From the NCBI GenBank assembly GCA_000004985.1, contig GG739028.1: DNA of 10,176 nt, one strand, 5' to 3'. The translations under genes and the position numbers were made by a program. Every line of letters begins with the position of its first letter. The first letter of the stretch is position 1. This document shows positions 1-10,176 of this stretch, one piece after another. The notes under the pieces were generated by a model. It made no database searches and was not told the origin of the DNA. It saw only the letters and a program-made list of their open reading frames with translations. Source of the DNA: Naegleria gruberi. Lineage: Eukaryota.

Positions 1-589
1 TAGGAGTGGATGACACACAGCACTATCATAGTATTTGTTATAGGTATTGTTGTTAATGATGATGGAATCGTTGGAAAGAGTTTCGAATATGTTGTAGGAA
101 AGAGATGTAATGACATCATGTGGTTGGTGGTGAAAGGACATTTGATGACGTTTTTCGCTGTTGCTATTTCAAATGCGAGCTCACACGCCAAGGTTCAAGT
201 CGTTACGAAACTAAACTAATCTCTCAGATAAACAATGAGAGTGTTGTGAGTTGTTTTCTTTTTGTTTAGTTTTGCACCACGACATGCAACAATGAACCTG
301 AATGTTTTGGCGGCTACTTTCCAATCATGAAATTGCAAAAGCCACAAAGATGCACAATGTTTGAAGTTGCGACACAGAGTTGACTGATAACATATTGCCA
401 TCACAGCCTAGTGGTGAACCATGTCTAAATAAGGTGGATTTTGGTTGCATTTTGATTAAAGTATTTTAGAAATTATTAGAAAGAAGTGAACCTTGATGGA
501 GGAACTGAGTACAATTTATATTTGCTCTTGTAAACGTTTAGGATTCCGACTTTAGTTTACATTAGAAAAGTATGTGATTAGAAAATAAA

Positions 590-1462: not shown

Positions 1463-2348
1463 ATGCGCAAGCTTACCCACACTGTATTAAAATCACATTC
1501 TTCTGCAGTGATTAATGCTCGCAAAGTGGTGCCCTCTATCATCAAATCATCATCAATAATTCTTACAGATAATAGTTTGAATGTTTCATGGCATCAATGG
1601 AAATGTTTTCATACAACAAGTCCTTGGCAAAATCAATCCTTCACACGGGACGGTTCTTCGGTTCTTGGGGGAAAGCCACCAACAGAGACACCAGACAATA
1701 AATCCATCATCACCCTAGCATTGAAAGACTTTGACACCTGGTCGGTTGCACAAGTATCTGCTGTGTTGATGTTGAGCAAACAGGAAGGGGGTATCGGTTT
1801 GTCCGAGGAGAAGATCAAACCACTCTATGATTCTGCTTTTGATGGACTGGCTCTGAGCTATATTTCAACAATAGATTAGAAGGAAAGAGTGAAATCAGTT
1901 GTATCGAACATACCATCAAGACAATGACAAACAGTAAGGACTTTGCTTCAGTGCCGAAAACTACTTGCACAACTGTTGTTGAATGGGTTGCCACCAAGTT
2001 GACACCTAAACCATATCGGTTGTGGAACACTCAAGAGTTAGATGATTTTCTTAGCAAACCAAAAGCCGAAGGAGGTGCTGGATTGAGTGATGAGTCCGTG
2101 GTCTACCTCCATCGTGCCAAAATCGACAACCTAACACTTGCCCGAATTGTTACTGTCATTAAGGAAGAAAGAATGAAAGGCCTTACAGAAGAAGAATGTA
2201 TTGAGCTTGCCACAAAGATAATGACAAGCGATAAGGACTTTGCTTTAGTACCAGAATCTACTTGTAAAGCTGTCACTGAGTGGGTTGCTACCAAGTTGGC
2301 TCGAAAGGCTGATGAGAGAGGTACTTTCATTAACATACCCTCCGATTG
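1463..2348 (+). CDS. Protein with a basic, acid-free N-terminal presequence (possibly mitochondrial) and at least two SAM-like modules plus repeated KDF(A)xVPxxTCxxVxEWVATKL blocks. The frame shifts -1 near 1862-1880 and the gene is truncated by the N gap at 2349
   Basis: ATG at 1463 (aaaaaATGcgc). SAM-like motifs W-S-V-A-Q-V-S-A-V-L...FDGLAL and WNTQELDDFL...AKIDNLTL. Frame-2 ORF 1463-1879 and frame-1 ORF (open from 1843) are homologous on both sides of the junction (GKSEISCIEHTIKTMTNSKDFA vs GLTEEECIELATKIMTSDKDFA), so they form one gene with a 1-nt frame discontinuity. Confidence 0.55.
1915..2310 (+). repeat. Intragenic tandem duplication: ~95-bp blocks at ~1915-2010 and ~2212-2307 (period 297 bp, ~75% identity) encoding the repeated protein module
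   Basis: aaggactttgcttcagtgccgaaaactacttgcacaactgttgttgaatgggttgccaccaagttg aligns with aaggactttgctttagtaccagaatctacttgtaaagctgtcactgagtgggttgctaccaagttg. Confidence 0.65.
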
Positions 2349-2398: not shown

Positions 2399-3155
2399 TC
2401 ATTAGGAGCATTGTTCACTGTTGTTTGTGGTTTTTCTGCTCACATTACGTCCCAACAAGTGGTTTCATTGGAAGAACTGGTCTTGCCTTTGTTATGGTCC
2501 GCACTGTTAAACATCAATTGCCTTCTGTATAGAGGGGTTCTGATGGGTTGTTGTGAAATTCACTGAAAGTGATGTCAAATTTGTTTCCACTGTGATTCCA
2601 GAATTTGCCAGAGTTGGGATTTCTGCAAATCAAGGAGGAATAAGGTAACATATGATCGTGGTGTACTTGTTTTGCCAAGAGCTGTGAAATTCTCTTGACG
2701 TGACCAAAAAAACCCCTAATCAATCCCAGATGTCCAATTGTTGAGTTGATCTTTAGGATGACTTGAACAGTACAAAATGTTTCGTTTGGTTGGTTTGTCT
2801 GTCACTTTACGAAATTGCATTCATATCTTGCTCATGATGCTCCTCGTTGCCTCACTTGTTGAAGAGAAATTTATTTATCGAATCACACAGGACGCCAACT
2901 GCTTGTGTGCAAAGCAGATTGTTTTGGTAACGATGCTCGAATCTGATTGCAATCTTCATAGGAATGAGAGGATGAGTGTGAAGAAATTGCCAAATCATCA
3001 GCCAATGCATTTATTAAGCATACGACGAACTCAACTGAGATGCTGTTCTCTCACAGTTGGGCAAATGAATTAGTAACGATACTGCATGGCAAATAACAAC
3101 TCATTAATGGGAGTGGTGAGGTGGTGTTCAACAAAAACAAAGAGCAGCATATTTT

Positions 3156-3166
3156 AAAAAAAAAAA
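3156..3166 (+). promoter_or_regulatory. A11 tract immediately (2 nt) upstream of the ATG at 3169
   Basis: attttaaaaaaaaaaacaATGact; the same motif as at 787-795. Confidence 0.3.
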
Positions 3167-3168
3167 CA

Positions 3169-4359
3169 ATGACTCTCTCTACTATTGAGAGTTTATTTTC
3201 TGTGACAGGTAATGGACAAACAAACACACTTGTTTCTCCATCTGCAAGAATCAGCAGATACAAAACAATCAAAGACTTTGTTAACATCACCAAGAAACAT
3301 GGCAATAACAAAGAATTCACTCTAAAAGAATCTCCAATGCAGAAATATTGTTCCAAAGTGGGAGATACATTTTTGTGTCAACAAAGAAATAGCAAAGGTA
3401 ATTCAACAAGTGTGTGTGTTGATGTTGGTGTTGCCAATTTTTCTTCCATGATGTTTAGTGAATCTTTTTTAATGGTCCAACCAAAAAAACAAACAAACAA
3501 TGACACATCCTTGGTGGATTTATTGTCATTGTTCAACATGTTGACACATACATTGCGAGATGAGACAGTTTATGAATTGTTGTTGCAGCTTTTTTCAAAT
3601 GATATTGACTTATTCGAAACCTTTTGTAAAGATTTACAAAAGAGAAACGAAAAAGTATCTTCATTATTCATTGCTTTTTCTGTAAATGTGGTTTCATTTA
3701 ATTCTTACATCCTTTTGCAAAAAGATAGAATGCGAATTTCAGATAGTCTTTACCATGAGATTCGAATTAGATTCTTTCTTGAAAAATATTTACCTCCCTT
3801 AGATGACTTAAAAGACACAAGAAAAGAAAAAAACATAGAAGTGCTTGGCTTTTATGATGTAAATATTAGATCTGTCAGTTATGTAGCCAGTGTTCAGCAT
3901 GAAAAAGAGCAGATATATGAGGACATTGATGAGCCAGAGGATGCCTGTGAAGATACTTGTCAAAATATTTGTCAAGATAGCTGTCAGAATATTTCTTCAA
4001 ATCCTACACAAGACAACCAATCGTCCAACAGTGTTGGTGTTGCAATGAGTATGTCGAGTAATGTGTTGAATGAATCACCTGTGACGGTAAAAGGAAATAA
4101 GAAACAAACGACAGTCGTGTTTGTTAAAAATATTACAAAATTGGTAAAGAGTATTTTGAAATTGGAATTAATCGAAACCATCAATAGACAAACAAAAGGA
4201 AAAGTTATTTCTGAGAACGATATGGCTTTTTTGGAAAAAGCAACAAAAGAGGCCATTATGAGTTATGGAATGGATCAAAAGGGTCTTAATGGTTTGACAG
4301 TTTTGGGTGTATCTATGCGAGGTTCTAGAGTTTTTATGCTCAATGTCCCTTTTCAATAA
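3169..4359 (+). CDS. Hypothetical protein (397 aa from the first ATG) with an acidic/Cys-periodic segment (EDIDEPEDACEDTCQNICQDSCQNIS). Possibly the N-terminal half of the downstream TET/JBP gene, separated from it by a 1-nt frame discontinuity at ~4340-4365
   Basis: Long ORF (ORF track 3121-4359 starts at a GTG; first ATG is 3169, behind the A11 tract). The next ORF opens in another frame at 4329, before this one ends at 4359, with no intergenic space. No recognisable domain by eye. Confidence 0.5.
   Translation: MTLSTIESLFSVTGNGQTNTLVSPSARISRYKTIKDFVNITKKHGNNKEFTLKESPMQKYCSKVGDTFLCQQRNSKGNSTSVCVDVGVANFSSMMFSESFLMVQPKKQTNNDTSLVDLLSLFNMLTHTLRDETVYELLLQLFSNDIDLFETFCKDLQKRNEKVSSLFIAFSVNVVSFNSYILLQKDRMRISDSLYHEIRIRFFLEKYLPPLDDLKDTRKEKNIEVLGFYDVNIRSVSYVASVQHEKEQIYEDIDEPEDACEDTCQNICQDSCQNISSNPTQDNQSSNSVGVAMSMSSNVLNESPVTVKGNKKQTTVVFVKNITKLVKSILKLELIETINRQTKGKVISENDMAFLEKATKEAIMSYGMDQKGLNGLTVLGVSMRGSRVFMLNVPFQ
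3958..3993 (+). repeat. Imperfect 12-bp x3 tandem repeat (tgtcaaaatatt / tgtcaagatagc / tgtcagaatatt) encoding a C-x3-C-x3-C-x3 periodic cysteine motif
   Basis: Seen directly; Cys codons at 3945, 3958, 3970, 3982. Confidence 0.6.
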
Positions 4360-4364
4360 TTCCA

Positions 4365-5166
4365 TTGGCCCTATGGAATGGTAAGGAAAAAGATATTTTA
4401 TTTATATCAAACATTATAAGGGCAGAGCTTGATGAATTGCGTAAACAGGTAGTGGTTATTGAATACAATGGAAAAAATTACAAGTATGAATTAAAAAACA
4501 AACTTGTTACTGATTTGTCTGCGTTTAAATATTTAAATGGATGGAGCAGAATTAATTGTCCATTTTGTGATTGTCCAAACGCACATAGTTCAATTAAACA
4601 GGGATGCACTGTTGTGGAAAGGTCTGGTAACACAGAAATTTCAAATTGTTTAGGATTTGATCATACTGATTTTATAATTTGTTATTTACATTTACTCGAA
4701 AGAATCATTCAACATCTATTAAGGCTTAGTTTAGGTACAGCAGAAGAAAATTTCGATTCTATGGTAAAAGAAATTCAAATGGTTTCAACATTAAGAAACT
4801 TGATGTTTGAACCAGATGAAAATGGAGATTACAATTTATATCTCACTGGTGACCAATGTGAAGCTCTATTGCAAGGACGTGCTAAATTTTTTAAAAATTG
4901 TCCAAAACATATTCAAGAATTATGGAACGAAGGCAATCACATTCTTGATATATTCAAAAAAGGGCTGAGCAATGGCGATTATCAAGATTTCCAATTATCT
5001 CTTGATCGTTTCTTCCAGAAATTTAAAAAGTATTCAACAATAGGAAGCTGGTATGTTCACATAATTATGTATCATGGGGTTGCTTTGTTAAAAACGTATG
5101 GAGGCTTGTCAAAATGGAGTGCAGAAGGTTTTGAACATTTTCATAGACTTCTTGAATATATTTTGG
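4365..5166 (+). CDS. N-terminal/middle region of a TET/JBP-family dioxygenase protein (pre-gap part). Contains a Cys cluster NCPFCDCPNAH...C...C and a His-rich segment; function of this region unknown
   Basis: Continuous ORF (frame open from 4329; no ATG at its start, first codon in the track is TTG). Same frame as the post-gap catalytic domain, though the gap length is an estimate. Confidence 0.5.
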
Positions 5167-6044
5167 NNNNNNNNNNNNNNNNNNNNNNNNNNNNNNNNNN
5201 NNNNNNNNNNNNNNNNNNNNNNNNNNNNNNNNNNNNNNNNNNNNNNNNNNNNNNNNNNNNNNNNNNNNNNNNNNNNNNNNNNNNNNNNNNNNNNNNNNNN
5301 NNNNNNNNNNNNNNNNNNNNNNNNNNNNNNNNNNNNNNNNNNNNNNNNNNNNNNNNNNNNNNNNNNNNNNNNNNNNNNNNNNNNNNNNNNNNNNNNNNNN
5401 NNNNNNNNNNNNNNNNNNNNNNNNNNNNNNNNNNNNNNNNNNNNNNNNNNNNNNNNNNNNNNNNNNNNNNNNNNNNNNNNNNNNNNNNNNNNNNNNNNNN
5501 NNNNNNNNNNNNNNNNNNNNNNNNNNNNNNNNNNNNNNNNNNNNNNNNNNNNNNNNNNNNNNNNNNNNNNNNNNNNNNNNNNNNNNNNNNNNNNNNNNNN
5601 NNNNNNNNNNNNNNNNNNNNNNNNNNNNNNNNNNNNNNNNNNNNNNNNNNNNNNNNNNNNNNNNNNNNNNNNNNNNNNNNNNNNNNNNNNNNNNNNNNNN
5701 NNNNNNNNNNNNNNNNNNNNNNNNNNNNNNNNNNNNNNNNNNNNNNNNNNNNNNNNNNNNNNNNNNNNNNNNNNNNNNNNNNNNNNNNNNNNNNNNNNNN
5801 NNNNNNNNNNNNNNNNNNNNNNNNNNNNNNNNNNNNNNNNNNNNNNNNNNNNNNNNNNNNNNNNNNNNNNNNNNNNNNNNNNNNNNNNNNNNNNNNNNNN
5901 NNNNNNNNNNNNNNNNNNNNNNNNNNNNNNNNNNNNNNNNNNNNNNNNNNNNNNNNNNNNNNNNNNNNNNNNNNNNNNNNNNNNNNNNNNNNNNNNNNNN
6001 NNNNNNNNNNNNNNNNNNNNNNNNNNNNNNNNNNNNNNNNNNNN
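5167..6044. other. Assembly gap (878 N) inside the TET/JBP-like gene
   Basis: Run of n. Confidence 0.98.
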
Positions 6045-6455
6045 ATTCTTGAATCACGATTTGTTCCAATTAGTGCTACCAATTTCATGATCCCAGGAAA
6101 CAAGCATAGAATTTTAAAACCACACAAGGACAATCAGGATGTGGGATTGTGCATTATCTTTTATTTTGGAAATTACAATGCTCCATTGGAATTTGTAAAC
6201 AAGGGAAGCGTATTTAATACTGAGAGAGGAGATGTTCTTTTAATGCGAGGCTCTCATTTTCGGCATGTAGTTAAGCCTGTGGATAATGGTTTGTTGGAAC
6301 ATGTACATGACCCAATGAGAATTAGTGTTGTATTATTTGCACACAAAAGTTTGAAAATGAATCCATCTTATTTTCTAAACGCTGGTTCGGCCTTGAAGGC
6401 CCATGATGAAGACTTTCCTGAGAAAGCCAAGAAAAGAAAGAAAAAGAGAAAATAA
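6045..6455 (+). CDS. C-terminal catalytic double-stranded beta-helix domain of a TET/JBP-family 2-oxoglutarate/Fe(II) dioxygenase (NgTet-like), ending in a basic KKRKKKRK tail
   Basis: Motifs HRILKPHKDNQD (HxD iron ligands; H at 6123-6125, D at 6129-6131), GDVLLMRGSHFRHVVKPV (distal His at 6264-6266), and RISVVLFAHKSL (2OG-binding Arg at 6318-6320 followed by HK). From memory these nearly match Naegleria NgTet1 (HRIRKPHKDNLD...KHVV...WRIGLVYFAHK) and human TET2 (RLSLVFYQHKNL). TAA stop at 6453-6455 overlaps AATAAA. Confidence 0.8.
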   Translation: MLESRFVPISATNFMIPGNKHRILKPHKDNQDVGLCIIFYFGNYNAPLEFVNKGSVFNTERGDVLLMRGSHFRHVVKPVDNGLLEHVHDPMRISVVLFAHKSLKMNPSYFLNAGSALKAHDEDFPEKAKKRKKKRK

Positions 6456-6506
6456 AATTATTTTGTTTACTGTAGTTGTTTTTAACATGATTACAAAATT
6501 ATATAT

Positions 6507-7091
6507 TTGGAACCGGAAACCAGTTTTGACAACAAGAATATATTTGATAAAATAGTCGCTACACTAGTTTTTAATAGCTTACCTGGTAGTGTATTTATTC
6601 CAGAATCTGAAACTTTCCCAAGCTTTGATTATGCTATTATTATGTACAAAGAGAAATCATTAGAAATCTTTCTGAAACAAAGCACCATTTCTACTGTTGA
6701 ATCTCATTATTGTCATAGTAATGGCAAAACAGATGTGGATAATTTACTGGAACGTCTTTATGTTTTAAATAGAGAAGGAAAGGCAATGAAAAGGAAACAA
6801 AACGTTCCAGAACAATATCATTTCTCATTACTTGAATTGATACTTCATGGAATTGTTGGAAGTGAAGAAACCAAAGTTGAATTGTTACAAGCCAGAAAGG
6901 ATGATCCAAAGTTGATCAAAGATGGAAAACTTGAAAACTCAGTAACATATGGTGACGTAGAATTCACTTGGCATTACATTTACGAATCAGGTGTGGAAGA
7001 ACAATCTGTAAAGAATGTTAAGGAGAATGGTATACTTTTTAGAAATAGACAAGAAATTGAAGACCAAATGAAGATTTATTTTGAAAAATAA
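6507..7091 (+). CDS. Hypothetical protein (frame open from 6486; first in-frame ATG only at 6643, so the start is uncertain)
   Basis: Protein-like translation across the whole ORF (EPETSFDNKNIFDKIVATLVFNSLPGSVF...KIYFEK*). An upstream ATG at 6487 is in a different frame, so this may be another 1-nt frame problem. No domain recognised. Confidence 0.45.
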   Translation: MEPETSFDNKNIFDKIVATLVFNSLPGSVFIPESETFPSFDYAIIMYKEKSLEIFLKQSTISTVESHYCHSNGKTDVDNLLERLYVLNREGKAMKRKQNVPEQYHFSLLELILHGIVGSEETKVELLQARKDDPKLIKDGKLENSVTYGDVEFTWHYIYESGVEEQSVKNVKENGILFRNRQEIEDQMKIYFEK

Positions 7092-7365
7092 CATGATCAT
7101 CATTTTCAAACATTGTCAGAACATTTAGAATCACATTGGTGCAAAAAATTATAAGTTCATTAAATACATTTGTATCAGATAATGATTGACAACCACAGGC
7201 ACTTTTCGGTTAATGGAAAACATTAATGGATCAAATCCACTATCTTTCCCAAACATATTTGTTCTTGTTACTTCAGTTGTGAAGAGGCCAATGACGCTCA
7301 CAATTTTCTTTCATCTTTCGAATTTTAAGTGTTTCTCAATTATTTCAATAATATTAAGGAAGTGA

Positions 7366-7965
7366 CTAGACCTTCATGATTGGTAAAACTCCCAATTCCT
7401 TCTCCAACTGTTTCTCATACGATGCTTGGAAACGAGTATAATTATCCAACATGTTGTGTTCACAAGCTGTTTGAATTCTATCAAACATTTCAGATGTAAT
7501 TGCAAATATTGTTCGTTTCTTTGGTGAATCAGTTCCTGAAGGTGAGCCACTGGAACCTCTGATTGCACTTTCTCTCAAAGCTTCAAATGTTTTCATTATT
7601 TCTGGAATTCCAAAATCCTTTCTTGAAATATTCAATTCAAGAGGAGCTCCAAGTCGAATATATGTATTACAAATATTGTAAAATAATTCTCTTCTTTGTT
7701 TTTCTGATTTGATTGCTTTGAATTTTTCAATGGCGTTCCACATCATGACATCTTCACATGCAAAACACTTTTCTGAGAATTTCAGAAAGAGATCATTCCA
7801 CTTTTCATTCAGTAAAATCTTTCGAATATTACTTTCGGAATTCATTGTTTCAGATAGTTGAATGGAATTTGATTTTTGAGTTGTTTCAGAATTGTCTGTT
7901 TTTGTCAGTTCTGATTTGAATCTTTGCAGAATGAAAACAGGATATGTAAATGACACGAATGTATC
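7366..7965 (-). CDS. RGS (regulator of G-protein signalling) domain exon / C-terminal region of the membrane-RGS gene; RGS box approx 7396-7833
   Basis: Minus-strand translation has hallmark RGS-box motifs: LFLKFSEKCFACEDVMMWNAIEKFK...ELFYNICNTYIRLGAPLELNI...FDRIQTACEHNMLDNYTRFQAS. The frame is open 40 codons upstream of the first Met (to 7965) and equals the frame of the upstream 7TM ORF, suggesting a fusion. The 5' junction is unresolved. Confidence 0.8.
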   Translation of the reverse strand, partial: DTFVSFTYPVFILQRFKSELTKTDNSETTQKSNSIQLSETMNSESNIRKILLNEKWNDLFLKFSEKCFACEDVMMWNAIEKFKAIKSEKQRRELFYNICNTYIRLGAPLELNISRKDFGIPEIMKTFEALRESAIRGSSGSPSGTDSPKKRTIFAITSEMFDRIQTACEHNMLDNYTRFQASYEKQLEKELGVLPIMKV

Positions 7966-8100: not shown

Positions 8101-9168
8101 AATATAATAACCAGCACCCAAAATACACTAATCACAACAACTTCAATCTTGACATTCCAAACATCTCTCTTTGTAAACAATGCAACAATGGAAACAATTA
8201 AGGAAATGAAAATATAAAAAGCTGCATATGAAATAAATACATATTGATCTGAAATAGTCCACAATTGCAATAATGTAATAAATCATAATGTGCAACGCCA
8301 CAATTAATCCATAGACCACAAAGATGAATTTAGTTCCTACAATGAATCTAAAGAGTGTAAATAATCTCTTTTCAAATATTTCCCATTTGGTTTTGTTTCT
8401 GAAAAGAATTTCCATATCCAATTGTTCATCTTGTAAAATTCCTGTAGAGCTGTCTTGTGTGGTTGATAATGAAAATGAGGACAAACTCTTTTGTTTTTCA
8501 ATATTGTCAGAGAGTCCACTTGATGATGATGTGTTTTCTCCAGTATTAGATTTAGCTGTTGATGAGCTAGTTGGATTTAGTTCAGTTTCGGTTGTTTCAG
8601 TAATTTGTTTAGGATTATCTGATGATATCGAATGACGCAGTTCATATTGTCTATTACCAATCCTCACTTTCAATTCATATAATTTTGTCAATATCAACAA
8701 TCTAATACATCTCAATATGACAGTATTCGAAAGTGCAGGCACAGCCAAATAATAGATTAGTGAAAATATGAAACATGGATAAATCTTTCGTCCAATTAAC
8801 ACTCTAGTCATTAATACGAAAGTATAGGTCCATCCAATAATTGCTCCCATGACCATCAATGCTGGATTCCTGGCAACCTGCAAATAATTCACCACTTGTT
8901 TGTGTTCCTTTTGGAGAATATGCAACTTTCTCAATTTATAAACTAAACCTCCAACCGAAACTAATAACAAGCTTGTGTGAAGGAACAACACAATAGCTGA
9001 AATAACAATGGCCGAAGTGGTGTCATCACACAATCCCTTCTCACTCTTGTTTCCTTGTGAAAGGAGGAGTGGATGACAGATCGTTGAATCATTTGTACTG
9101 GGATTCGAATAGTTAGAGACCAACAACGCATCAAATATTGCCGTAGGAAAGATCACTTTGGCAGACAT
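8064..9168 (-). CDS. Multi-pass (about 6-7 TM) membrane region of a GPCR-like/RGS-fusion protein with a long Ser/Thr-rich hydrophilic loop; contains a 1-nt frame discontinuity at ~8245-8285
   Basis: ATG at 9168-9166 behind aaaaaaaaacacc. Hydrophobic helices: SAIVISAIVLFLHTSLLLVSVGGLV; ALMVMGAIIGWTYTFVLMTRVLIG; IYPCFIFSLIYYLAVPALSNTVIL; KFIFVVYGLIVALHIMIYYIIAIV. Then, in the +1 frame (ORF 8061-8282), YVFISYAAFYIFISLIVSIVALF and VVVISVFWVLVIILYGVA. The main frame after 8245 translates to C/F/Y-rich junk and stops at 8143. Confidence 0.6.
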
Positions 9169-9422: not shown

Positions 9423-10176
9423 TTACATAAATAAAGTAGTTTGAATCAGTTTTTGGAGTTGCTTTTTGTTTTTCAAGTGATTGTTAATTATTTCAGCTCG
9501 CTCAGAGTCTTTTCCAATTGGGTTTTCAAAATAAACAGATTGTTTCTCAGATTCACTCCAAATAATGGCAAGAAAGCCATAACGTGTTGATTGCTCATTC
9601 ACTTCCTTCTTAAATTCCTCAATAGATGTTTTTGGGTTGATGGTAAGAATCAATTGATTTTGATATCTGAAACGTGTTTGCAATTCAAAATGATATAGTT
9701 GATTTGAGTCTAATAAGGCACATTTCATATTGTTAATTGATATTTTGATTTCAAGAGGTTTTGTTTTTGAAAACTTGTTGCCTTTGAAATAGTTCAAACT
9801 TGGGAAAATGGCACCTGACAAGTCACATTGGTTGAAACTGTTCTCCCAATCATCACTGAAACAATATCCAAACATATTACAGGATTCAAATTCACAATTT
9901 TCAAATTTAGCACCTGATTGCTTCCAAAATTCACAGTCTTTGAATAAGGTATTTACAAATACTTTTCCTTTCAAAGATTCTTGATCGAATGATTTCTTTT
10001 CAAATTTTAAAATTGGGGTACAGTTTCTGAACGTTGCATTTTCGGGATTGGAATTAGTGAAATCTATATTTTGAAAATCGCAATTTTCGAAACATGTATA
10101 TTTTAAATTGCATGAGGTAAGATTTGCTGCAGAAAAGTTTCTACAAGATCTGAATTGTGCACTCTCAAGATAGAAT
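9423..10176 (-). CDS. Pentapeptide-repeat protein, 5'-partial (N-terminus lies beyond the window end), with a ~130-aa non-repeat C-terminal region
   Basis: Minus frame is open from 10175 to the TAA at 9425-9423. Hand translation gives consecutive 5-residue units with a central F/L: CRNFS AANLT SCNLK YTCFE NCDFQ NIDFT ... FENCEFESCNMFGYCF. The ORF track's M at 9974 is a TTG, not the real start. Confidence 0.7.
   Translation of the reverse strand, partial: FYLESAQFRSCRNFSAANLTSCNLKYTCFENCDFQNIDFTNSNPENATFRNCTPILKFEKKSFDQESLKGKVFVNTLFKDCEFWKQSGAKFENCEFESCNMFGYCFSDDWENSFNQCDLSGAIFPSLNYFKGNKFSKTKPLEIKISINNMKCALLDSNQLYHFELQTRFRYQNQLILTINPKTSIEEFKKEVNEQSTRYGFLAIIWSESEKQSVYFENPIGKDSERAEIINNHLKNKKQLQKLIQTTLFM

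Follow-up and report, generated by a model that had tools for sequence, protein, structure and literature searches.

The 10,176-bp stretch of Naegleria gruberi DNA analyzed here (contig GG739028.1; the window in what follows) is a complete small scaffold with a GC content of 34%. Its middle part carries on the plus strand a gene for what is very likely a RAG1-like transposase, followed by a gene for a dioxygenase of the TET/JBP family related to NgTet1, and the two are probably the genes of one transposon whose right end is at 6591. An earlier prediction for this locus, made from the DNA letters and referred to below as the original prediction, had taken the same region for a single large protein ending in a TET domain. 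The features on which the comparison of the two readings turns are as follows.

2349-2398, assembly gap of 50 N
2399-3168, plus strand, non-coding stretch 5′ of the transposase start codon (ATG), with no convincing open reading frame (ORF) on either strand
3169-5166, plus strand, transposase gene, codons 1-666 of 834; the last 168 codons fall in the gap, and 1 nucleotide (nt) is deleted near 4336
4332-4340, plus strand, where the transposase frame is split by the loss of 1 nt, placed by comparison with an intact paralog
5167-6044, assembly gap of 878 N; the counterpart in the independent contig L001 holds transposase codons 667-834, TAA TAA, a spacer, and TET codons 1-172 including the ATG
6045-6455, plus strand, TET/JBP dioxygenase gene, codons 173-309 and the stop, recognized by its match to NgTet1
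6456-6591, plus strand, 3′ subterminal region and right terminus, ending in ...CTTACCTGGTAGTG (reverse complement CACTACCAGG...)

Three small scaffolds of N. gruberi, 7.6, 10.2 and 12.2 kb long, carry identical or near-identical protein models. The intact transposase copy is P0002 (XP_002668557.1; 834 amino acids (aa)), which is on another scaffold, of 7,596 bp; the annotated TET protein is P0001 (XP_002668594.1; 207 aa), on a scaffold of 12,219 bp; and P0003 (XP_002668525.1) is the RefSeq model on the window scaffold itself. A 309-aa version of the TET protein (P0024), which belongs to the 90% cluster of P0001, comes from an ENA assembly, and the 1,882-bp contig encoding it (L001), being an independent assembly, was used for bridging the 878-N gap. 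Positions 1-251 of L001 are 99.2% identical to window 4916-5166 and positions 1297-1848 are 99.5% identical to window 6045-6595, and with these two matches the gap was closed in silico at both edges. The 878-N stretch corresponds to 1,045 real bases holding parts of two genes, instead of the approximately 290 codons that had been thought to be hidden there. A word-indexed protein search with either half of the transposase missed even the 100% identical RefSeq protein, and its blanks for this locus carry no weight; further copies were sought in public metagenome and viral collections and none was found.

In the window, the upstream gene is divided between ORF 3169-4359 and ORF 4365-5166. Frame 1 closes as GSRVFMLNVPFQ followed by a stop, and frame 3 gives ...YAQCPFSIIPLALW, whereas the intact paralog has GSRVFNAQCPFSIIPLALW, so that P0002 runs through the junction as ...GSRVFNAQCPFSIIPLALW.... 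Where the residues GSRVFNAQCPF of P0002 require tttttAatgctc, the window reads tttttatgctc, and one base is absent at approximately 4336. Apart from that one base, the window matches P0002 at all 666 visible codons, and the stretch 4353-5165, which served as the query of the HMMER scan described below, is 100% identical to P0002 at residues 396-666. Judged from the intact paralog, the two ORFs are one gene with a 1-nt frame break, as the original prediction had supposed. Two other ways of joining the ORFs were considered and rejected. A perfect X XXY YYZ heptamer, CCCTTTT (4347-4353), stands where frame 1 meets frame 3 and would suit a programmed -1 frameshift; a plain 1-nt indel approximately 15 nt upstream accounts for the break instead, and the heptamer is coincidental. 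An intron connecting both ORFs, as modeled in P0003, does not agree with the 1-nt indel seen against the intact paralog, and P0003 also drops conserved residues. That model is a chimera, in which ORF 1924-2346, located upstream and unrelated, is spliced to pieces of the transposase and to ORF 6507-7091, and the TET gene is skipped.

The 834-aa protein is, with high confidence, a DDE transposase of the RAG1/Transib/CACTA type, a member of the CMCT clade (EnSpm/CACTA, Mirage, Chapaev, Transib and RAG1), within which its lineage is unplaced by curated models. An HMMER scan with 4353-5165 against 1.84 billion representative proteins gave 22 hits at E ≤ 0.001, namely P0002 and P0003, which belong to this element, and 20 relatives (P0004-P0023; 24-45% identity), the sources of which are metagenomes, Logan assemblies and two NCBI genome assemblies. 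The family has in common the motif series D ... DL ... CP.C ... C.LH..ER ... SWY.HI..H ... S.(E/Q)G.E..H, which in P0002 takes the form GMD369QKG, P.A.W.G.E, VTD449L, C464-P-F-C467, C505-x-L-H508-x-x-E-R, Y-x-H631-x4-H636 and S-x-E-G-F-E656-x-x-H. Y629, H631, H636 and E656 are invariant in the core alignment (A3). In the window, the motifs, together with a Cys-rich run discussed below, are located as follows.

3946-3990, plus strand, periodic-Cys run CEDTCQNICQDSCQN (residues 260-274), in an unconserved linker
4273-4275, plus strand, Asp369, putative first catalytic Asp, conserved in all full-length relatives and located where strand E22-31 of the core model ends
4512-4514, plus strand, Asp449, putative second catalytic Asp, in the DL after the fourth core strand, aligned by HMMER to RAG1 D708 in GTGYDEKL
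4557-4568, plus strand, C464-P-F-C467, C(2)C zinc motif (the conserved CP.C), aligned to RAG1 C727/C730 (ICTLCD)
4680-4691, plus strand, C505-Y-L-H508, C.LH..ER motif, in which C505 is nearly invariant and which corresponds to the third conserved His of CMCT transposases
5058-5075, plus strand, H631-x4-H636, H(4)H zinc motif, invariant in A3, aligned to RAG1 H937/H942 (YFHKTLAH)
5133-5135, plus strand, Glu656, putative catalytic Glu, invariant in A3, aligned to RAG1 E962 (SEGNES)

A single-protein sequence search of the PDB gave noise only, and a family profile was needed. When the core profile A3 was compared with all PDB sequences, significance was reached for RAG1 only, with 6xnx as the best match (E 5.8e-5); approximately 15 distinct RAG1 sequences were matched, E down to 0.017, and amphioxus RAG1L (6b40) was matched at E 8e-4. 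The aligned RAG1 segment, 914-979 in the full-length numbering (9jpu_A), covers H937, H942 and E962, and a weaker collinear stretch places D449 on D708 and C464/C467 on C727/C730. By its position, Asp369, which is on strand beta-1 of the RNase H fold, would correspond to RAG1 D600. The core was modeled with AlphaFold2 from an 18-sequence alignment with no templates, and the model had a predicted local distance difference test score (pLDDT) of 83.5 and a predicted template modeling score (pTM) of 0.81. In fold comparison the model scored 19.7 against RAG1, with 303 of 361 residues aligned, and 19.5 against amphioxus RAGL, followed by HzTransib (11.7), the P element transposase (10.6) and Hermes (5.7). 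It has an RNase-H-fold core with conserved D, D and E, and the motifs C(2)C and H(4)H are located between the second Asp and the Glu, an arrangement published as the signature of the CMCT clade (PMC12730594), for which two Cys and three His are listed as conserved (Kojima 2025, PMC12730594, Figure 4 legend).

Taken together, the motif, profile and fold evidence indicates that the Cys/His clusters pointed out in the original prediction are the zinc ligands of a RAG1-like transposase and the region around its catalytic Glu. The strings themselves are present as described, and the idea that they form an uncharacterized domain was not borne out: NCPFC is the C(2)C motif, WYVHIIMYH the H(4)H motif and SAEGFEHFH the surroundings of the catalytic Glu. 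The run CEDTCQNICQDSCQN, which had been put forward as a periodic-Cys motif, has no counterpart in the alignment of the relatives and falls within residues 242-307, where the full-length model has a pLDDT below 50; it is a predicted disordered linker and no domain. Pfam returned no family for the 666-aa window protein at E up to 10. Among the 20 relatives there were sub-threshold matches on one member each, to Transposase_23 (E 1.3e-3), Transposase_21 (E 7.9e-3) and DUF1280 (E 5.9e-4). The distant member P0014, from a Logan contig, bears a C-terminal Ulp1/C48 peptidase domain (residues 1155-1250, Pfam E 1.8e-7), a peptidase that occurs in Zisupton too.

The second gene is a predicted stand-alone NgTet1-like Fe(II)/2-oxoglutarate dioxygenase of 309 aa. 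Window 6045-6452 encodes its C-terminal half, which matched NgTet1 (5cg8/4lt5) with a phmmer E of 1.9e-15; the alignment spans chain positions 213-325 of 4lt5_A, and there was no other PDB match. With the full 309-aa ORF, taken from the 99% identical copy in L001, the match to NgTet1 improved to E 2.7e-26, and BLASTP gave 30% identity over 261 aa (E 2e-33). The alignment has the HxD...H iron triad and the Arg that binds 2-oxoglutarate all in place, at the following positions.

6123-6131, plus strand, His200-Lys-Asp202, HxD iron ligands, aligned with NgTet1 H229/D231
6264-6266, plus strand, His247, distal iron ligand, aligned with NgTet1 H279
6318-6344, plus strand, R265-ISVVLFAH273, in which R265 (6318-6320) corresponds to NgTet1 R289, F271 to F295 and H273 to H297

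The roles given to R265 (2-oxoglutarate binding), F271 and H273 are those that we assume from the structure paper of NgTet1. The assignment of a TET/JBP catalytic domain to 6045-6455 in the original prediction was confirmed in this way, down to the correspondence of its H, D, H and R with H229, D231, H279 and R289. The gathering score of the Pfam model Tet_JBP (PF12851; cut-off 34.9 bits) was missed by both the window part (17.4 bits) and the full ORF (15.5 bits), and only the final 76 positions of the profile are matched; membership in the TET family rests for this reason on the direct match to NgTet1. From PISATNF through the stop, the window segment is 100% identical to P0001. The T-run at 6064-6065 is TT in the window and TTT in L001, and because of this missing T, at the gap edge, frame 3 of the window reads SRFVPISATNF where P0001 reads DLFPISATNF. 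The protein ends in a Lys/Arg-rich tail (KKRKKKRK).

Evidence for an element that includes both genes came from its right end. The window and L001 are collinear through 6591 (...GGTAGTG) and unrelated after it, save for a gapped 4-nt TATT match by which BLAST extended the alignment, and the right flank of L001 differs from that of the window; an 11-mer that is also present in the L001 flank was taken for a chance match. Six contigs of transposase relatives (L002-L007) were compared. In L004, which carries P0009, terminal inverted repeats of 19 nt were found (45-63 and 4727-4745; CACTACAGGGTACACCAGC and GCTGGGGTACCCTGTAGTG, 95% complementary). The element that they bound is 4,701 bp long, and its four ORFs, among them the transposase P0009, are all on the same strand. 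L005 ends in ...GTGTAGTG, 117 nt past its transposase stop. CACTAC is invariant in all four termini, that is, the right end of the window, both ends of L004 and the end of L005, which argues that 6591 is a genuine CACTA-type terminus. Since the TET stop codon is 136 nt inside this terminus, the TET gene would be cargo of an element bounded by terminal repeats, and we hold this to be probable. With similar confidence, the window from approximately 2399, or further left, to 6591 is taken as one copy of a CACTA-ended cut-and-paste transposon with two genes on the same strand.

The 50-N gap is 770 nt upstream of the transposase ATG, and in L004 the distance from the terminal repeat to the ATG is 977 nt; by this analogy the left end is probably in or beyond the gap, and 2399-3168 probably belongs to the element as its 5′ subterminal part. 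The window copy is damaged, with a frameshift in the transposase, a frameshift at the gap edge in TET, and an unassembled left end. Three tiny scaffolds with gaps at or near the element, and one frameshifted and one intact copy, fit a young repeat. Full copies of the element would be expected to be bounded by 5′-CACTACCAGG ... CCTGGTAGTG-3′ and a target duplication of 2-5 bp.

In L002 (200-889), L003 (350-841) and L004 (308-958), an ORF of 163-229 aa on the same strand stands immediately upstream of the transposase. These ORFs are weakly alike (BLASTP E 5e-7 to 6e-9), have no Pfam match and may encode an accessory protein of the transposon family; a counterpart was sought in the window and none was found. 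At the other end, a 194-aa ORF (6507-7091, plus strand) with no significant Pfam match spans the right terminus. Because it straddles 6591, only the part after this position can be a flanking host gene.

Several observations weigh against a transposon with TET as cargo. Copies and a right terminus were found, but the left terminus was not: there is no plus-strand CACTAC anywhere in the window, the right-end 15-mer had no left-terminus match in the window with up to 3 mismatches allowed, and no shared k-mers or subterminal repeats were found between 2399-3168 and 6456-6600. The only upstream CACTA site, at 21, is in the apparent start of a host gene paralog, recognized by weak protein-level resemblance. 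No target-site duplication was found in the window, where the right flank alone (TAT...) is readable, and the flanks of L004 (CAG and TCG) give no clean duplication either. The differing flank of L001 amounts to approximately 35 nt at a contig end. The TET gene is in none of the six relatives' contigs, so that its linkage is seen in this element only, and no member of the transposase family has a significant match to a Pfam transposase family. Copy number is uncertain, since two copies, or haplotypes of a single locus, could also account for the three scaffolds. In the TET protein, the residue aligned with NgTet1 N147, which we take to contact the substrate base, is His, a possible difference in specificity. 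Finally, 5-hydroxymethylcytosine (5hmC) was not detected in N. gruberi DNA (PMC12344493).

Part of these observations would also be expected if the two were fixed host genes, that is, a domesticated RAG1-like transposase beside a host TET gene, copied by segmental duplication or by redundant assembly. The left end and the target duplication are unseen, the three scaffolds could be redundant haplotigs, and domesticated CMCT transposases exist, RAG1 being one. Against this, the similarity of the copies stops exactly at a CACTAC-type terminus that is found in relatives with full terminal repeats; copies that are 99-100% identical, one of them frameshifted, are typical of young transposons; and they are on very small scaffolds broken by gaps, as repeats are in Sanger assemblies. 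On balance, we consider fixed host genes improbable and retain the transposon as the explanation.

The relation of the two genes to each other was read from L001. The upstream frame closes as ...AYNKFYTL TAA TAA and is followed by ATT TAA TTT TAA AAA AAA and then by ATG GGC AAA.... The A-rich spacer between the double stop of the transposase and the ATG of TET is 21 nt and has two further in-frame stops, and the four in-frame stops are all within the 24 nt preceding the ATG. The TET ORF has this ATG as its own, behind an A-rich leader resembling that of the transposase, and runs for 309 codons to the same stop as in the window (6453-6455). The original prediction held TET to be the C-terminus of a protein of more than 1,100 aa, in which an N-terminal Cys/His-rich targeting region is fused to the TET domain, and it is true that both ORFs share one frame in L001, merely 8 codons apart, and that a mechanical ORF caller connects them through the N-run. 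Nevertheless, the ORF of at least 696 aa at 4365-6455 is an artefact, listed because the ORF finder translates the 878 Ns as X. As the length of an N-run holds no frame information, continuity across the gap is unsupported, and the L001 sequence rules it out: no uninterrupted frame connects the N-terminal region with the TET domain, and with four stops between the in-frame ORFs there is no fusion protein. In accordance with that, the RefSeq model (834 aa) and the independent gene call (309 aa) list two distinct proteins, and the TET ORF is about as long as the stand-alone NgTet1 (321 aa), to which it aligns from residue 73 on. From the sequence of this junction, the transposase and TET are almost certainly two separate genes, and a fusion is extremely unlikely.

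TET genes linked to KDZ (Kyakuja/Dileera/Zisupton) transposons in basidiomycetes were reportedly described by Iyer et al. in 2014. The suspicion of a mobile-element module, raised in the original prediction by analogy with such fungal elements, was right as to a transposase and wrong as to its type, since a KDZ transposase, for which speak the classical standing of KDZ elements as TET-linked transposons, the CA..TG termini that Kyakuja likewise has (PMC12730594) and the C-terminal Ulp1/C48 peptidase of P0014, is hardly credible beside the absence of a Pfam KDZ/CxC match (window protein, E up to 10; 20 relatives, E up to 1), a profile and a fold that both indicate RAG1, RAGL and Transib, and the motifs C(2)C and H(4)H, which stand between the second Asp and the Glu and are the published CMCT signature (PMC12730594).

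Among known systems, those most like the Naegleria element are TET-carrying CMCT transposons of fungi (EnSpm, ESTA and Plavaka; Kojima 2025, PMC12730594), together with the KDZ-linked TET genes of basidiomycetes. The fungal elements likewise combine a DDE transposase that has C(2)C and H(3-4)H motifs with a stand-alone TET gene, and they are bounded by terminal repeats with 5′-CA...TG-3′ ends, as the Naegleria element probably is, its right end being of this type. ESTA itself was recognized through HHpred-level similarity to RAG1 (PMC12730594). The Naegleria element differs from them in its host, a heterolobosean amoeboflagellate (Discoba), in a TET of the NgTet1 type, in a transposase family that has no Pfam or named-family match and only 21-37% identity even to its nearest relatives, in the position of TET 21 nt past the transposase stop, and in relatives that bear other small ORFs in place of TET. 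Compared with RAG1, amphioxus ProtoRAG RAG1L and Transib (4wwx, 6dbi, 6b40 and 6pqn), the transposase has approximately 13% sequence identity, the 170 residues at its N-terminus are either unrelated or of low confidence, and the Pfam models of RAG1 and Transib miss it; the terminus is CACTAC and not CACAGTG or a Transib-type end, and no RAG2-like partner gene is seen. NgTet1 (XP_002667965.1; 4LT5, 5CG8) is from the same organism and of similar size (309 versus 321 aa, 30% identity), and between residue 73 and the C-terminus H229, D231, H279, R289, D234, F295 and H297 are conserved. The TET of the element is a paralog, with His for N147, an 8-residue insertion before the Arg strand, and the KKRKKKRK tail. 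Literature searches turned up no report of a link between Naegleria TET genes and transposons, though an earlier mention is possible; TET-carrying transposons have so far been described only in fungi, and the Naegleria case would add a new eukaryotic supergroup.

The transposase has an RNase-H core with Asp369, Asp449 and Glu656, and a large insertion between the second Asp and the Glu is presumably held by a zinc site of C(2)C and H(4)H. If it works as RAG1 and Transib do, it would attach to the CACTAC... termini and nick them. The element would be released through hairpins on the flanking DNA, as for these two transposases, and its 3′-OH ends would be integrated with a short target duplication, as the family suggests. 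The chemistry of transposition, current mobility and co-expression of the two genes are inferred. NgTet1 acts on T as well as 5-methylcytosine (5mC), and from its likeness to NgTet1 the TET of the element is predicted to oxidize 5mC, or thymine. In N. gruberi, 5mC of the DNMT1 type is concentrated on repeats, DNA transposons among them (PMC12344493), and TET may locally or transiently strip the 5mC that the host places there. Escape from 5mC silencing is the rationale proposed for the fungal TET-carrying transposons (PMC12730594), and by this analogy the most likely role of TET here, on which our confidence is about evenly balanced, would be anti-silencing by counteracting repeat 5mC.

The rest of the scaffold contains other features. 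A direct repeat of 122-143 nt (592-713 and 7295-7437; 77% identity with indels, blastn E 4e-29) was considered as the bounds of the element and rejected, since it is a 3′-end fragment of a paralogous RGS gene and is off the CACTAC terminus. The copy at 7295-7437 comprises the last codons and 3′ untranslated region of the RGS-domain gene 7366-7956 (minus strand; Pfam RGS, E 1.5e-9), and the copy at 592-713 is an orphan, apparently what is left of a paralogous gene. The RGS ORF is directly downstream of a 341-aa ORF (8143-9168, minus strand) that is hydrophobic and membrane-like by eye, and the two are possibly one intron-containing membrane-receptor-RGS gene. A tandem family is suggested by window positions 1-132, the minus strand of which encodes an N-terminus (...CHPLL) with weak similarity. 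ORFs 1463-1879 and 1924-2346 (plus strand) have no Pfam match and include a diverged 102-nt internal repeat (1900-2001 versus 2197-2298, 77%). The 183-aa ORF 9423-9974 (minus strand) has weak pentapeptide-repeat/beta-helix matches (E 0.016-0.8) and runs into the repetitive stretch 9980-10176.

For the annotation, the results call for three RefSeq corrections, namely of the chimera XP_002668525.1, of XP_002668594.1, which is truncated to 207 aa of a 309-aa ORF, and of XP_002668557.1, which should be renamed as a transposase. For the transposases, a deep-branching lineage invisible to Pfam joins the RAG1/Transib/CACTA clade, which bears on how the fold of the V(D)J recombinase arose. A TET gene inside a CACTA-ended, RAG1-like transposon of Discoba would make TET capture recurrent across eukaryotic supergroups, and the NgTet family should accordingly be read as cargo of mobile elements that may counteract the 5mC on repeats. 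It is also possible, as a tentative extension that we think rather less likely than its opposite, that all or most of the eight NgTet paralogs, including NgTet1, are cargo of an active RAG1-like CACTA transposon family. The scaffold of the NgTet1 gene (P0025, XP_002667965.1) has only 1,110 bp, little more than the gene itself, as would be expected of a repeat or other sequence that assemblers fail to place; this is compatible with a repeat context for other paralogs and no proof of it. If this extension is true, TET capture by CMCT transposons was independent in Discoba and fungi, the Naegleria TETs would be transposon-encoded anti-silencing factors and not host epigenetic regulators, and the failure to detect genomic 5hmC in N. 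gruberi despite in vitro activity would be explained in part.

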